This document shows positions 2,903 to 7,620 of a stretch of DNA of 30,548 bases, piece after piece; within the stretch, counting starts at the first letter, position 1; each line of letters starts with the position of its first letter. Origin of the DNA: a virus (lineage: Duplodnaviria; Heunggongvirae; Uroviricota; Caudoviricetes). The translations under genes and the position numbers were made by a program. The notes beneath the pieces were generated by a model. It was not told the DNA's origin. It ran no database searches and saw only the letters and a program-made list of their open reading frames with translations. The DNA lies in the IMG/VR virus record IMGVR_UViG_3300045988_118519; one strand, given 5' to 3'.

Positions 2903-3727
2903 TCAGGCGGTGAAAGTACCAATAAAGGTTTCTACTTTGCTGTCTTTGAATTTCTCAACAAGCAGATCACGAAATTCGTTAGCCATTTCTTCCTGCACTG
3001 CTTCCAGCTGAATAATGCGCAGAACCAGTACAGGACGATCGCCAGTGATAATGCTGAGGCGTAATTTAAATGGACGTTCTTTCAGACCTTCAAACGGAAC
3101 GCATTTAAATTCAAATGCCACTGGCATAATGTCTTTGGTCTTCGCTTCGACAGACTCCATCAGGGAGCGTTTGCCGCTGAAGTCATTATCTTCAAAATCA
3201 GCGGTCTGGTTTGCTTCAATCGTGATTTTACGGACAGCCGCAGCCGCTTTTGTTGCCTGAATAGCGTCACCATTAGCATCAAAGCCCACAAGGTAGTCGG
3301 CCCAGTCTTCAATCCATTCTGCCAGTGACTTCTGGGAATGACGCTCGCCGTTAACAGACAACAGAGCAGAGAACGGTGCTGTCTTTTTCAGTTTGAGAGT
3401 GGCAGTGTTATCTGCGTGACCTGGCTCATCAATAGTACCCAGGTTAAGCACACTGACGGCACGCATATTATCGGCATCGATAAAGCAGCGGGTGCCTTCA
3501 TCTGCAAGATCTTTAGAATAACGGGTAAAGTCATCGATGCTGGCAGTGGAAAGCGCACCACGGAAACGGAAGCGATTTAAATTAAATTTTTCCAGATCAT
3601 GAATGCGGAAATTCTCAGGCAATGCCACAGCATCGGCACCAATCTTACTGATAATTTCATTAACACCCTGAGCAGAAATAAGAGCATGGATTTGATTAAT
3701 TGCGGTTGCGTCTAAGTTCTGAGACAT
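2903..3727 (-). CDS. yfdQ: DUF2303 protein, YfdQ-like, 274 aa
   Basis: Length equals CPS-53 YfdQ (274 aa); synteny with yfdP/R/S-like genes. Confidence 0.65.
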
Positions 3728-3792
3728 AATAAGTCCTCACTATATAAAGATATTCAGTGATGAGATAAATAATCAGTTAATTAAGAACGATA

Positions 3793-4155
3793 TTAATGAC
3801 CTGCTGCGCGGAGTTTTCCGTCAGGTTCACCGGCAAGAGTCAGTAATTGTCCCTGGTCTTCCTGCAGAATAGTCAGGCGACCACCGCGATTGACATACAT
3901 CGGCGTTTCGGTGGTGTCTTCTTCAGAAATTTTCCCGCGGTTAGTCGGGCGAACATATGAGAGTTTGTGTTTGATTTTCACACGGTTCTCATCAAACGGT
4001 TCGATTTCCAGGTTGAGCGAGACCTTACCTTTGGTTTTCGTGTTCATCACACCGGAAGCGACTTCACTGAGAACAGCGCCGATTTTGGTTTCAAATACGC
4101 CGCCGTCCAGCTCCCCGATAAATGCCTGCACATCAGTACTGCGTTCGCTAGCCAT
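3793..4155 (-). CDS. yfdP: Hypothetical protein, YfdP-like, 120 aa
   Basis: ATG at 4155 with GAGGAG RBS; the 182-aa track ORF extension runs through hairpins and is rejected; length equals YfdP (120 aa). Confidence 0.55.
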   Translation of the reverse strand: MASERSTDVQAFIGELDGGVFETKIGAVLSEVASGVMNTKTKGKVSLNLEIEPFDENRVKIKHKLSYVRPTNRGKISEEDTTETPMYVNRGGRLTILQEDQGQLLTLAGEPDGKLRAAGH

Positions 4156-4295
4156 TTTGCTGCTCCTCATCATATCGACCCTGCAAGGTCGGTTGGTTTC
4201 TCCACAAAACAGAGAAGAACACCTGCGGTGACTGCCGCCCGGATGGATTGGGTTATGAGCCCGTCGTCCGGTGATGCTCTTCTCTGTTTTGTAAA

Positions 4296-4337
4296 AAGAG
4301 CGGTACCAGCCGGAAGCAAGTGTACAAACTGGTACCG
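4296..4337 (-). terminator. Hairpin (GGTACCAG...CTGGTACC) followed on the minus strand by GCUCUUUUUAC; terminator-like element in the pL leader
   Basis: Inverted repeat and U-tract read on the minus strand; alternatively a boxA-like CGCTCTTTTTA. Confidence 0.4.
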
Positions 4338-4769
4338 CCAAAGCAGTGGCTGTTGTGGTGACCGGTGCTGATCTCCGGCTTGCGGTTATTTCAGACTCTC
4401 ACGGGCGTTTAATTGCCCCGCCGAACAGCTCTTTTCCGCAATAGCTGCAATGTCTTTCGCGCATCAGCCTGCGCATTCACCACAACGCTGAGAGCACTTA
4501 GCCAGTTACGGCACCACACTTTGTCGCGGTTCCATAAATGCCCTCATCGTTGCACCCTGGTCTCTTCCCAGGCGTCAAACCGAATCGCCACGCTGGTTAG
4601 GCGTCTTATCAGCATCCTCATTGACTTGCACATTCCGGCTACCTGGTTTGTCTGCTCGAGCAAGGAGTGGATTGTCCCCTTTAACGTCCCCAGACCGCTA
4701 ACGACGCATGTGCCATACGCCGTGTTACAACCAAATTTTGTTAGGACCTTGTTTGTTGGTCTGGAAAGA

Positions 4770-4821
4770 AAGATAAAATGAAATTGCGTAATGTGCAAGT
4801 GTTTTGTTGCGAGATATGCAA
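4770..4821 (-). promoter_or_regulatory. Candidate pL with two operator sites (OL)
   Basis: Two 15-bp sites TTGCGTAATGTGCAA (4784-4798) and TTGCGAGATATGCAA (4807-4821); minus-strand -35 TTGCAC (4793-4798), 17-bp spacer, -10 TATCTT (4770-4775). Confidence 0.5.
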
Positions 4822-4834
4822 TAGCGTGAGTAAT

Positions 4835-4857
4835 GAAAAGCCACCTTCTGGTGGCTA
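4835..4857 (-). terminator. Rho-independent terminator downstream of cI-like gene
   Basis: GCCACC-ttct-GGTGGC hairpin followed on minus strand by CUUUUC; lies 20 nt past the cI stop. Confidence 0.65.
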
Positions 4858-4877
4858 ATTGATGTTGAGGTAGGGGG

Positions 4878-5570
4878 TTAATTGTGTCGCTTAAGGGTTT
4901 GTGACTGACTGATTAAGACCTTTCCAAAGACCATAAACCGGTGTTCGTTTTCGCTGGTAATTCCCCATTCGCGGTAAATCTGATTATCAGAAATTACCAG
5001 CAGTTTATCAGGTATCATTTGCAGTCGTTTGACGTAAATTTTATCATCAAAACCAAATACATATATACCATCCCCATCAAACTGATTGATACTGATATCA
5101 ACGAAGATGAGATCTCCTGGCTCAATGGTTGGACACATACTGTCCCCACGAACGTTGATAACTTTAATGTGATTTGCTGGTCGTCCACCAAACATCGATA
5201 CAGCATTATCAGTTCTGTATTCAATGGCATGAATCACATCAATGACATCACCGCCCTGGATAAGGCCATTTCCCGCACTGGCACTGACATCCAGCATTTC
5301 AATACGGAATACATCCTTCACCTGCGCAACATCCTCACTAATACTGTTTTTACATACAGTATTACTTTTGAGGTCTGAGGTAAAGAGATCAGCAATATCA
5401 ACACCTAAGCTCCTGGCAATATTACTCAGGGCTTGTTCAGTGAATTGTTTCTGCTTACCTGTTTCGAGGCGCGAGATATTCGCCGCATCCACTCCTATTG
5501 CTTCAGCGAGATCGGCGATTTTCATGTTCTTCGCCTGGCGAAGTTGTCTGACTCGATTTCCTATGTTCAT
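4878..5570 (-). CDS. cI-like repressor (XRE HTH plus S24 LexA-like peptidase domain), 230 aa
   Basis: N-term RVRQLRQAKNMKIADLAEAIGVDAANISRLE HTH; Ala-Gly site in SASAGNG; GDSM Ser and VKRL Lys dyad; no SD upstream of ATG (possibly leaderless). Confidence 0.9.
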   Translation of the reverse strand: MNIGNRVRQLRQAKNMKIADLAEAIGVDAANISRLETGKQKQFTEQALSNIARSLGVDIADLFTSDLKSNTVCKNSISEDVAQVKDVFRIEMLDVSASAGNGLIQGGDVIDVIHAIEYRTDNAVSMFGGRPANHIKVINVRGDSMCPTIEPGDLIFVDISINQFDGDGIYVFGFDDKIYVKRLQMIPDKLLVISDNQIYREWGITSENEHRFMVFGKVLISQSQTLKRHN

Positions 5571-5590: not shown

Positions 5591-5662
5591 TTGCGCGTTA
5601 AGCAAATCAACTTGCGCAAAATATTTGCGTGAAATAATATGCTCATCACGCAATATGTGGAG
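5591..5662. promoter_or_regulatory. OR region with candidate pR and divergent cI promoter
   Basis: TTGCGCGTTAAGCAA (5591-5605) matches the OL site pattern; palindrome CGCAAAATATTTGCG (5615-5629); -35 TTGCGC (5612-5617), 17-bp spacer, -10 TAATAT (5635-5640); GGAGG RBS before cro. Confidence 0.5.
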
Positions 5663-5667
5663 GTTAT

Positions 5668-5928
5668 ATGCAATCACCATTACGGAATGTGCGTAAGGCG
5701 CACGGATTTACTTTGCAGCATGTTGCTGCGGGCGTTCAGGTCAATCCAGCGACGCTGAGTCGTATTGAAAGACTGGAACAAATTCCATCTATCGATCTTG
5801 CAGAACGTCTGGCCAATTTTTTTAAGGGTGAAATCAGCGAAATGCAGATTCTTTATCCGGCACGTTTTCAATCTAGCCAAAACCAGAATGGGTTTAAACC
5901 ACAGGAACAGGAGGTAAGCCGTGGGTAA
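5668..5928 (+). CDS. Cro-like XRE-family HTH regulator, 86 aa
   Basis: VRKAHGFTLQHVAAGVQVNPATLSRIE HTH; divergent from the repressor gene. Confidence 0.8.
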   Translation: MQSPLRNVRKAHGFTLQHVAAGVQVNPATLSRIERLEQIPSIDLAERLANFFKGEISEMQILYPARFQSSQNQNGFKPQEQEVSRG

Positions 5929-6472
5929 GCATCATTGGAAAGTGGAAAAACAACCTGAGTGGTACGTGAAAGCTGTCAGAAAAACTATCGCGGCATTGCC
6001 TGGGGGTTACGCTGAAGCTGCTGACTGGCTGGATGTAACAGAGAACGCTTTATTCAACCGCCTTCGTGCAGATGGCGATCAGATTTTCCCGCTGGGATGG
6101 GCAATGGTTTTACAGCGCGCGGCTGGCACTCACTACATTGCGGATGCTGTCGCACAGTCTGCTGGTGGGGTGTTCGTATCGCTTCCTGAAATTGAGGAAG
6201 TAGAGAACGCCGATATAAACCAGCGCCTGCTGGAAGTCATCGAACAGATCGGGAATTACTCAAAGCAGATTCGTTCGGCAATCGAAGATGGGGTCGTGGA
6301 GCCACACGAGCAGACAGCAATTAATGATGAGTTGTATCTGTCAATTTCGAAGCTCCAGGAGCATGCAGCACTGGTCTACAAAATCTTCTGCGCTCCAGAA
6401 AAGAGTGACGCCCGCGAGTGTGCAGCTCCGGGCGTCGTGGCGTTTTGTGTCTGTGGAGAAACTAACGCATGA
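5921..6472 (+). CDS. CII-like phage regulatory protein (CP76-type), 183 aa
   Basis: GTG start with AGGAGG RBS at 6 nt; position after cro; family assignment from recall. Confidence 0.55.
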   Translation: MGKHHWKVEKQPEWYVKAVRKTIAALPGGYAEAADWLDVTENALFNRLRADGDQIFPLGWAMVLQRAAGTHYIADAVAQSAGGVFVSLPEIEEVENADINQRLLEVIEQIGNYSKQIRSAIEDGVVEPHEQTAINDELYLSISKLQEHAALVYKIFCAPEKSDARECAAPGVVAFCVCGETNA

Positions 6473-6882
6473 ACAGTTTAACGGCAAATAACCGTTTGTC
6501 GCAACAGCTGGTGGTCAGTGTCGCTGAACACCTGTTGTTACGGCATGAATGCAGATTACCAAATCACTTGGCTGTAAGTAACCACAGAGAACTTTACCTG
6601 ACTGTGGGGGGCGAGTTGTGCAGGAACTTAACCGCTGGTTTCGTGACGGAAGAGGGCTTTATGTCCATGTTATTCGTTGGGAGCCAGAAACACAGCGCGT
6701 TATCTATCTTCGCAAAGACTACCCGCATGAGTGCTTTAGTCCTTTGTGGAAATTCAGGCGTGATTTTGTTGAGTGTGAAGGACCACCAGCACATTGATTC
6801 TGCCATTCCGGGACGTTACACTGTTCAGGCACCTTATAAAGCGGGTGCCGGGCGTGGAAACTCGGAATTCACCAAAGCGCAC

Positions 6883-6905
6883 AACCGCGCTCTTGCGGTT
6901 TTTTT
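6883..6905 (+). terminator. Rho-independent terminator-like hairpin AACCGC-gctctt-GCGGTT plus TTTTTTT
   Basis: Read directly; lies inside the long frame that continues into Rha. Confidence 0.5.
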
Positions 6906-7074
6906 GTGTAATGAGCAGCATTACGCCCAAATTATGGTGGGGCGTGCAGGGCCAACTTCGGTTGGGCCGGGTTCTTTGGTGACCGGTATTTCCACCCCTG
7001 TACGTCTCACCACCAATAAGGTCGTGGAAAGCCTTGGTGGTGAGTTATTAAAAATCACCAAAGAGGCTGCCATC

Positions 7075-7620
7075 ATGGCTACGATCCCAACCCTCACTCA
7101 ACCTGAAATTGCCATCGTTGATGGTCAGGCTGTTACTTCATCCCTGGCTGTTGCCAACTTCTTCTCCAAACGTCATGACGATGTACTGAAAAAGATCCGC
7201 ACGCTTGAATGCTCTGCATCATTCACTTCCCGCAATTTTTCGGCGAGTGATTACACCGATTGCACAGGCCGCAAACTACCTTGCTATCAAATAACCCGCG
7301 ACGGCTTTGCGTTTCTTGCTATGGGTTTCACGGGTAAACGTGCTGCCCAGTTCAAAGAGGCATACATCAATGCCTTTAACCAGATGGAGAAACAGCTTTC
7401 AAATCCCTCTGTACTGAGCGACGTTGCACATAACGCCAGCGTTCTCTATTCCTACATTTCATCAATTCATCAGGTCTGGCTGCAGCAGCTTTATCCTATG
7501 TTGGCAAAAGCCGAATCTCCGCTGGCTGTTAGCTTGTATGACTATATTAATGATGCTTCGGCACTGGCCTGCCTCATAAATTTGTCGCTGAACCCTTCAG
7601 AGGTAAGGGGGCGCAAATGA
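7075..7620 (+). CDS. Rha-family phage regulatory protein, 181 aa as called (the frame is open from 6469)
   Basis: IVDGQAVTSSLAVANFFSKRHDDVLKKIRTL matches the Rha N-terminal domain; ATG at 7075 with AGAGG RBS. Confidence 0.7.
   Translation: MATIPTLTQPEIAIVDGQAVTSSLAVANFFSKRHDDVLKKIRTLECSASFTSRNFSASDYTDCTGRKLPCYQITRDGFAFLAMGFTGKRAAQFKEAYINAFNQMEKQLSNPSVLSDVAHNASVLYSYISSIHQVWLQQLYPMLAKAESPLAVSLYDYINDASALACLINLSLNPSEVRGRK

Follow-up and report, generated by a model that had tools for sequence, protein, structure and literature searches.

The roughly 600 nucleotides (nt) that adjoin the presumed leftward early promoter, pL, in the viral DNA analyzed here (IMG/VR record IMGVR_UViG_3300045988_118519; the whole stretch of 30,548 nt is called the window) contain three separate structured RNA families, designated modules A, B and C, which are under selection on the minus strand. 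These modules, located between positions 4156 and 4769, are portable: they occur singly or in many different orders, almost always co-oriented with phage tRNA genes and often at tRNA-like spacing. We hold with moderate confidence that the apparent pL “leader” is a set of tRNA-island RNA genes which are processed into stable RNAs, with module A doubling as the leader of the early-left genes yfdP and yfdQ (yfdPQ). This reading is drawn from the behaviour of the modules, which resembles that of tRNA genes (they are small, portable, co-transcribed and structurally constrained) and not that of the leader of a single gene. The elements of the region are, in the direction of leftward transcription:

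4545-4725, minus strand: module C, about 180 nt, with five helices and two pseudoknots (alignment A5)
4485-4553, minus strand: A', a long stem (CAACGAUGAGGGCAUUU/AAGUGCUCUCAGCGUUG) which links C with B
4354-4484, minus strand: module B, a 131-nt tRNA-shaped RNA (alignment A3, covariance model R1 and minimum free energy folding)
4293-4338, minus strand: tL, an intrinsic terminator with stem GCGGUACCAG...CUGGUACCGC (4338-4300) followed by UCUUUUU (4299-4293)
4204-4292, minus strand: module A, with an outer stem of 20-25 bp, a 7-bp inner stem, the tip GACGGGCUCAUAACCCAAUCC and a side hairpin GCGG-CAGUCA-CCGC
4156-4203, minus strand: translation start region of yfdP, with the conserved GUGGAGAAAC, a small hairpin (4174-4193), the Shine-Dalgarno sequence GAGGAG (4168-4163) and the ATG at 4155

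Module B is a four-way junction with the outline of a tRNA. Its 7-bp closing helix (UGUGGUG/CACCACA) is followed by an AAU linker, a hairpin (GCGCA-GGCUGA-UGCGC), a variable centre (74 nt in the window and about 40 to 110 nt across the alignment) and a 3' hairpin, which is stacked directly on the closing helix without a spacer and which reads GCCGG-AGAUCAGCA-CCGGU in the window and GCCGG-AGAUCAGCR-CCGGC in the alignment. The alignment comprises 120 distinct copies obtained from exact-string pattern scans of IMG/VR. Pairing is maintained in 98.1% of its cells, and nine pairs have changed on both sides, compared to 1.5 in shuffled alignments (0 of 500 shuffles reached the observed value); the covarying pairs include all five of the 3' hairpin and three of the five of the 5' hairpin. 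The segments GCUGA and UCAGC in the two hairpin loops are complementary and both nearly invariant. The minus strand is favoured because the pairs contain 43 G·U combinations versus 17 A·C combinations, and the covariance model, which detects a single copy in the window, scores 105 bits on the minus strand and 8.9 bits on the plus strand. The same four-way junction is obtained as the minimum free energy structure of the single sequence. The closing helix, with U-A at 91%, consists of the 7 bp and two optional pairs, and a longer closing stem, or one of the RNase III type, was rejected as a general feature since pairing is at background after 9 bp. An interpretation of B as a DNA element, either a miniature inverted-repeat transposable element or another structure with terminal inverted repeats, was ruled out by the strand asymmetry of the G·U pairs, the co-orientation with tRNA genes and the strand-specific model scores. 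A search for targets within the window to which the centre of B might be antisense produced only two 11-mers, which is the chance level, and an encoded CCA is not a regular feature: of the 213 copies, only 16-38 have NCCA in a constant register, and the trailer is otherwise just rich in C and A.

The sequence that precedes B is also conserved. The leader CAGUGCUCUUUCCGUU stands before the closing helix and is found as well before tRNA-Arg in phiV10-type phages, and a boxA-like UGCUCU occupies a fixed position at -13 in 85 of 213 copies, with the string UGCUCUUU in 57 of 213 where about 0.2 would be expected. The distribution of B is very wide. A 40-nt core recurs at about 90% identity in T1-like and Vi01-like Klebsiella phages, the late leader of HK620, P1 and phiV10-type phages; exact-pattern scans place B in at least 120 IMG/VR contigs; and an exact 22-mer occurs in the representative genomes of 59 species extending from the Enterobacterales to the Acidobacteriota (Enterobacterales, Aeromonas, Janthinobacterium, Martelella, Geobacteraceae, Desulfonatronovibrio and an Acidobacteriota metagenome-assembled genome). 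The particular variant of the window is carried by 857 of 5426 complete E. coli genomes. It was also observed that 237 of the 970 E. coli places with this variant are on plasmids, that P1-like E. coli plasmids of approximately 95-100 kb carry it at 96-98% identity (for example NZ_OY754380.1 67147-67295 and NZ_CP183103.1 21410-21546), and that an Undibacterium locus (L267) has two copies of the 22-nt core 524 nt apart.

Module C is a more elaborate fold, which consists of a hairpin P1 (loop UGGCACA), a long variable hairpin P2, a pseudoknot PK1 (GCACA/UGUGC), a hairpin P4 (loop UCACCA), a second pseudoknot PK2 (CACC/GGUG) and a hairpin P5 (loop GAAGAGA). In the alignment of 24 sequences, pairing is again maintained in 98.1% of cells, as against 26-45% in controls in which the structure was slid along the alignment, and changes on both sides affect 11 pairs and 43 cells, compared to 5.2 and 10.9 in shuffles. 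Invariant G·U pairs on the minus strand fix the strand of the element. In both the window and a Buttiauxella prophage (L270), a CG pair of PK2 has become AU by a double change. A long-range helix proposed by RNAalifold was replaced by a local hairpin and a pseudoknot, an arrangement backed by nine double changes. Homologues of C with 68-88% identity are located upstream of B at many loci, upstream of tRNA-Arg in phiV10-type phages and between trnI and ban in P1, and a core 19-mer is present in at least 120 IMG/VR contigs.

Module A is dominated by its outer stem, whose 25-nt arms (4204-4228 and 4268-4292) are 84% complementary; the segment from 4195 to 4300 on the minus strand folds with an energy of -51.2 kcal/mol (z -7.7). 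The 15-bp inverted repeat described in the initial annotation of this region is part of these arms and is real, with GCTCTTCTCTGTTTT correctly assigned to 4276-4290, but its other member, AAAACAGAGAAGAAC, sits at 4206-4220, one base from the position originally given. Of the 20 positions of the outer stem, 18 are paired in nine of nine rows; the swaps GC/CG, AU/CG and AU/GC are seen there, as are minus-strand G·U pairs, and the inner stem has its own swaps (GC/AU/UA, AU/GC/CG and GC/CG). Over the 17 copies compared, the tip GACGGGCUCAUAACCCAAUCC is nearly constant. It contains GGGCUCAUAACCC (4262-4250), in which three G-C pairs carry a CUCAUAA loop in the manner of the anticodon arm of an initiator-type tRNA-Met, and these 13 nt are identical in a phage initiator-like tRNA-Met which lies beside B at one locus (L013) and, we presume, in the anticodon arm of E. 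coli tRNA-fMet. A core 20-mer of A was found in at least 120 IMG/VR contigs. The long-stem variant of the module precedes a diverged yfdP-yfdQ pair in six of nine loci, and other variants occur before B or among tRNAs.

The element A', which joins C to B (-32.8 kcal/mol, z -3.8), is homologous to the outer stem of A and has an unrelated core; the 3' flank of C and the leader of B resemble the two strands of the stem of A. The 3' strand of A' and the conserved 5' leader of B are one and the same sequence, in which a degenerate boxA-like motif, UGCUCUC (4496-4490), is found. The boxA-like string UGCUCU(UU) was observed as the 3' strand of A-type stems, with its complement, AAGAGCAU, at the end of module C, and by these shared strings the three modules share linker sequences. 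Between B and A lies the hairpin with a U-tract that had been noticed initially; its arms (4300-4309 and 4329-4338) are complementary at 10 of 10 positions (-21.2 kcal/mol, z -3.9), and the UCUUUUU that follows the hairpin on the minus strand identifies tL as an intrinsic terminator of transcripts from pL. Prophages of Citrobacter, Phytobacter, Superficieibacter and Kosakonia likewise have B, the terminator and A in this order. Beyond module A, the conserved GUGGAGAAAC is able to pair with the terminator tail CUCUUUUUAC (window positions 4156-4203 and 4289-4302, minus strand), and this pairing may extend the stem of A to about 25 bp in read-through transcripts, giving a possible RNase III substrate or switch.

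The proposal that this is a leader special to the early-left operon did not survive a comparison with other genomes, because the same portable modules are also present in tRNA arrays, late leaders, the ban operon of P1 and lytic phages. Matches to the region form a mosaic in which individual pieces recur independently (in mEp460, SfV, Shiga toxin (Stx) phages, P1/P7, phiV10-like phages, HK620, and T1-like and Vi01-like phages), and conservation of the structures in relatives, which had been set beforehand as the test of the idea, extends far beyond those relatives. Modules were located at 444 loci; at 441 of these every module has the same orientation, and tRNA genes within 1.5 kb of the modules are on the same strand in all but one locus. 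For B in particular, 20 of 20 tRNAs within 1 kb share the strand of the RNA, and six of these begin only 7-16 nt downstream of it. The arrangements counted include a solitary B at 154 loci, a solitary A at 67 and a solitary C at 31, C followed by a tRNA at 26, CA at 25, CB at 23 and CBA, the order of the window, at 13, and arrays of the P1 type read tRNAs-A-B-A-tRNA-C (T+ABATC, where T denotes a tRNA). In 101 of 180 loci the two flanking open reading frames (ORFs) have the same orientation as the RNA, which is above chance, and in 21 of 180 both have the opposite one, a configuration that implies that the modules are able to stand alone.

Known RNA families do not account for the modules. At gathering thresholds, Rfam 15 matched only C4 and isrK in the whole window, each at a distance of 2 kb from the region; for 3700-5000, a threshold of E<=10 brought up nothing but two spurious matches, both eukaryotic; and modules A, B and C had no Rfam 15 match in five other loci. 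ARAGORN found no tRNA or transfer-messenger RNA gene in the window. No description of A, B or C was found in the literature searched. They may be among the 10,006 unnamed candidate RNAs of phages in a catalogue from 2023 (PMC10690425). Two loci bear on how the modules sit among other small RNAs (sRNAs). In a Pseudocitrobacter prophage (L227), a match to Rfam isrJ at 3517-3593 on the plus strand (58.9 bits) ends where a copy of A begins, with B 101 nt further on, so that the arrays also house prophage sRNAs of the known Hfq type. In phage P1 (L005; 3496-3615 on the minus strand and 3654-4223 on the plus strand), a sub-threshold match to STnc100 (33 bits) lies between B and tciA in the ban operon, and the P1 ORFs upl and plp, which are placed on the opposite strand over B and overlap tRNA-Thr, may be mis-calls.

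The initial description of 4156-4769 as about 600 bp of structured non-coding sequence, on the strand transcribed from pL and with no N-like gene, holds up well. The predicted fold of the 615-nt region is better than that of every shuffle on both strands (z -4.4 on the minus strand and -3.5 on the plus strand), and its GC content of 54-55% is above that of the flanks and the highest of the neighbourhood. The ORFs in the region encode 84 amino acids (4798-4547) and 49 amino acids (4319-4173) on the minus strand and 122 amino acids (4413-4781) on the plus strand. One or more of them might be a hidden gene for a small protein, since records of mEp460 (mEp460_036/037) and phiSTEC1575 (phiSTEC1575Stx2k_14-16) annotate hypothetical proteins here and there is one match in PHROG, to phrog_33599. 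We consider this extremely improbable: the two annotations disagree on the strand; Pfam has no match to any of the three ORFs; the only PHROG match among the leader ORFs is to the 49-amino-acid ORF, which is laid over a conserved hairpin whose arms show compensating changes; no open reading frame is kept across 24 homologues of the upstream half of the region, in which only 24 of 155 insertions and deletions are multiples of three; and the RefSeq annotation pipeline, PGAP, leaves this region without features and calls nothing over B in the 12 records listed. The hypothetical proteins and PHROG 33599 are probably artefacts of conservation at the level of RNA. An N-like or other antiterminator protein was likewise not matched in Pfam or PHROG by the leader ORFs or by the seven left-operon proteins tested, and the arrangement of lambda, in which the first gene encodes the arginine-rich N, is absent, there being no conserved ORF in 4156-4769.

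If the modules are RNA genes, transcription leftward from pL would cross C, A' and B and then meet the strong terminator tL, and the main immediate-early product would be a transcript of about 470 nt (C-A'-B) which extends from pL to the terminator, while read-through past tL would lead into module A and yfdP-yfdQ-yfdR. The modules would be cut out of polycistronic transcripts as stable small RNAs, in the same manner as tRNAs; the 7-bp helix of B on its 5-bp hairpin would present the shape recognised by RNase P and other enzymes that process tRNA ends. Once released, the modules may act in trans on a component of the host which is conserved across the Proteobacteria and beyond. Module B would mimic the acceptor, T-arm and elbow of a tRNA, and module A would display the anticodon arm of initiator tRNA on a long rod. 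Given this outline of B and this tip of A, the most likely partners would be tRNA-binding enzymes or tRNA-targeting nucleases, which the RNAs would decoy or hijack. The 25-bp stem of A would serve additionally as the processed 5' leader of yfdPQ. In a more far-reaching and tentative version, which we regard as rather unlikely as it stands, A, B and C are three previously undescribed families of phage tRNA-island RNAs, spread across phyla, which mimic parts of tRNA, decoy or hijack the conserved tRNA-binding machinery of the host and amount to an RNA-based counter-defence that accompanies the tRNA genes of the phages; the targets could be, for example, tRNA-cleaving defence nucleases, VapC-type toxins specific for initiator tRNA, RNase P or other processing enzymes.

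Several observations weigh against the interpretation of the modules as processed RNA genes. The stable, trans-acting status of the RNAs is deduced only from context and shape. Module B was rejected by ARAGORN and by the Rfam tRNA model, its loops are unlike D and T loops, it has neither an anticodon arm nor a fixed encoded CCA, and the energy of its fold is no better than that of shuffled sequences (z -1.2). The loop-loop pairing of B and PK1 of C are invariant and hence have no support from covariation. In the window the array occupies precisely the interval from a promoter to a terminator, as would befit a role in cis, and the conserved leader of B is boxA-like. Finally, the conservation in each half of B is partly a matter of ascertainment, because both of the seeds used to search IMG/VR were exact strings.

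Of the options that had been offered at the outset, “regulatory RNA” is the closest to the present results, with antitermination or attenuation in cis as less probable alternatives. Processive antitermination without N, the main rival reading, which we judge doubtful, could operate in either of two versions: nascent RNA of C, B or both might bind RNA polymerase in the style of HK022 put, or the boxA-like UGCUCUUU before B might recruit NusB/NusE and the Nus complex, as happens in rRNA operons and CRISPR arrays, and in either case polymerase would pass Rho-dependent sites within the long untranslated array, and perhaps tL, to reach yfdPQR. The position of the array between pL and an intrinsic terminator in an operon with no N-like gene fits this explanation, as do the maintenance of the order B, terminator, A, yfdPQ across genera, the excess of boxA-like strings at a fixed distance from B noted above, and the co-orientation of the downstream gene in 133 of 180 loci. 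The invariance of sequence across phyla would be accounted for as well if the partner were conserved to the degree of RNA polymerase or NusB/E, and long untranslated arrays are known to need protection from Rho by BoxA and the Nus factors (PMC7665894). Against it, neither the structures nor the sequences are like put (PMC9378689), the nearest tRNA is upstream of B in 11 of the 20 B loci that have one within 1 kb, so that B is not always the first unit, and the modules are also found in lytic phages and, in the 21 of 180 loci already mentioned, opposite to both neighbours. The boxA-like motif of the window, UGCUCUC, is itself degenerate, and the predicted fold places it in paired form within the stem of A'. 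Nus/boxA complexes suppress Rho-dependent terminators and not strong intrinsic ones.

Ordinary control of yfdPQ by its 5' untranslated region (5' UTR) would make tL a simple attenuator that limits early-left expression, with C and B as passengers and the 25-bp duplex of A as an RNase III site which, like that of the lambda N leader, tunes the translation or stability of yfdP. The long, nearly perfect stem of A is what such a mechanism would use; A is about 85% identical in DNA where the adjoining YfdP-YfdQ homologues are only 59-67% identical in protein; and the U tract of the terminator can form pairs with the conserved GUGGAGAAAC, which stands between A and the ribosome-binding site. This explanation, which appears unlikely, has no account of the variants of A that are without yfdP (before B, behind tRNAs and twice in P1-type arrays), of the invariant tip resembling an initiator anticodon, or of the conservation of C and B. 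The region might instead be evolutionary debris, that is, decayed tRNA genes and recombination scars of a former tRNA island which seem conserved through recent copying. The patchwork similarity with sharp module boundaries, the tRNA-derived appearance of the tip of A and the outline of B, and the visible degeneration of A into A' are consistent with decay, but this possibility is very improbable in view of the compensatory changes in 11 pairs of C, nine of B and several of A, the retention of the structures in copies that have diverged to 68-80%, and the exact 22-mer that the core of B retains across phyla, in contrast to the freely varying centre of the module. It is the reading of the modules as RNA genes of a tRNA island that we continue to prefer.

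The specific idea that the region holds a put-like RNA is not borne out by the comparisons made. The putL and putR sites of HK022 are, like the modules, non-coding RNA downstream of an early promoter and upstream of terminators in a lambdoid phage without N, but put RNA is about 70 nt long and forms a V of two stem-loops and a triplex, with no closing helix, directly after the promoter (PMC9378689), in contrast to the 131-nt four-way junction with a 7-bp closing helix, the 180-nt RNA with multiple pseudoknots and the long rod that are found here. In the window, C does lie just downstream of the early promoter, about 37 nt after the putative transcription start, but the same modules are also present inside tRNA arrays far from promoters, in the P1 ban operon, in the late leader of HK620 and in lytic phages. 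The covariance model of B had no match at E<=1 in HK022 21000-32500, and blastn of 4156-4800 against the same interval, the only method by which C and A were compared, gave only chance matches of 14-21 nt (E>=0.29). Membership of the put family was thus rejected on architecture and by direct comparison. Where put suppresses terminators, it works in cis on RNA polymerase through the zinc-binding domain of the beta' subunit. A check for nut sites, in which boxA is followed by a boxB hairpin with a GNRA-like pentaloop, located the boxA-like UGCUCUC at 4496-4490 and CGCUCUUUUUACAA in the terminator tail at 4302-4289, and identified no boxB-type hairpin. The consensus of E. coli boxA is UGCUCUUUAACAA. 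As in the BoxA/Nus leaders of rRNA operons and CRISPR arrays, UGCUCUUU stands just upstream of an untranslated structured array; unlike in those leaders, a motif of this kind is present in only 27-44% of the copies of B, and in the window it is degenerate and probably paired.

The resemblance to tRNA is closer, although it is incomplete. Module B has an acceptor-type helix of 7 bp which is coaxial with a 5-bp stem, and thus forms a 12-bp minihelix, and it has a second hairpin after a 3-nt linker; module A has a CUCAUAA loop on three G-C pairs; and the modules share the genomic niche, strand and spacing of phage tRNA genes. The loops of B (GGCUGA and AGAUCAGCA) are on the other hand not those of a tRNA, a variable insert of 40-110 nt replaces the anticodon arm, and a fixed CCA is lacking. 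An example of tRNA-like stable RNAs from a phage tRNA cluster is given by the species 1 and 2 RNAs of T4. YrlA, a tRNA mimic bound by Ro/Rsr and found in phages as well (PMC4201824), is also a non-coding RNA with a tRNA-like domain, but its gene stands beside rsr, Ro binds a stem built from its ends, and its T and D loops have the consensus bases of tRNA, while the ends of module B form the “acceptor”, the loops are not those of tRNA and the neighbours are cI and yfdP, with no rsr. Identity with YrlA or Y RNA was ruled out by this context and by the lack of a match to YrlA in Rfam. The sRNA islands of prophages (IsrK, IsrJ, C4, STnc100/PasD and Pas) are similar in that small RNA genes are clustered in lambdoid regulatory or tRNA regions, but those sRNAs are short Hfq-type or antisense RNAs with Rfam models of their own, of which A, B and C match none, having junction and pseudoknot folds instead; no sequence strings are shared by the modules and the Pas sRNAs (bioRxiv 10.64898/2026.05.13.724894 and its supplement). 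Ribozyme cores (hammerhead and other) and a T-box motif, GGUACCGC, in the terminator were dropped as candidates, having no Rfam match and motifs that are unconserved in homologues.

tRNA-like non-coding RNAs are already known, and what makes the present case notable is the existence of three families which travel together and show invariance of sequence across phyla. Phage tRNA clusters are at present interpreted both as supply lines and as a means to counter tRNA-cleaving defences, and if these clusters also carry three conserved, intricately folded RNAs which are not tRNAs, then part of their cargo has been overlooked. The modules are common, being present also in Stx-converting phages and P1-type plasmids; they are unannotated or mis-annotated as hypothetical proteins, and the alignments and models could seed new RNA family entries. 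For this lambdoid operon, the consequence is that the early-left operon of a phage without N begins with an array of putative RNA genes closed by a strong terminator, so that the route to yfdPQR becomes a concrete question with boxA/Nus, RNA-mediated antitermination and leaky read-through as the possible answers.

The stretch belongs to a lambdoid prophage of the mEp460/SfV/cdtI type. In the leader region, it matches phage mEp460 at 97.8% identity and E. coli SCU-484 at 100%. The features that flank the region are:

3793-4155, minus strand: yfdP, the first early-left gene (4155-3793; phrog_204 match), followed by yfdQ (DUF2303) and then an HD phosphatase gene
4770-4798, minus strand: candidate repressor-controlled pL, with -35 TTGCAC (4798-4793), a 17-nt spacer and -10 TATCTT (4775-4770)
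4784-4798 and 4807-4821, minus strand: OL-like operators TTGCGTAATGTGCAA and TTGCGAGATATGCAA, with the exact pattern TTGCG-N5-TGCAA, overlapping the putative pL
4878-5570, minus strand: cI, an S24/helix-turn-helix repressor
5668-5928, plus strand: cro, followed by a CII-family gene

The operators are situated just downstream of the cI terminator (4839-4856) and have near-copies in the gap between cI and cro (5591-5605 and 5639-5653). Since the operators, the cI terminator and the readable -35 and -10 hexamers put pL near 4770-4800, the stretch from 4156 to 4769 is taken to be its proximal 600 nt or so, and leftward transcription would start near 4762; the candidate was not reported by a scan for consensus promoters, and its hexamers come from a reading of the sequence. 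On the other side of cro, isrK (62.5 bits) and the C4 antisense RNA (83.6 bits) are found in tandem at 6829-7017 on the plus strand, downstream of the CII-family gene. They lie inside a mechanically called ORF of 383 amino acids (6469-7620), which makes it improbable that the 5' half of this ORF codes for protein, and the region resembles a second RNA-based immunity or antirepressor control of the P1/P7 immI type or, as we presume, of the SfV type.

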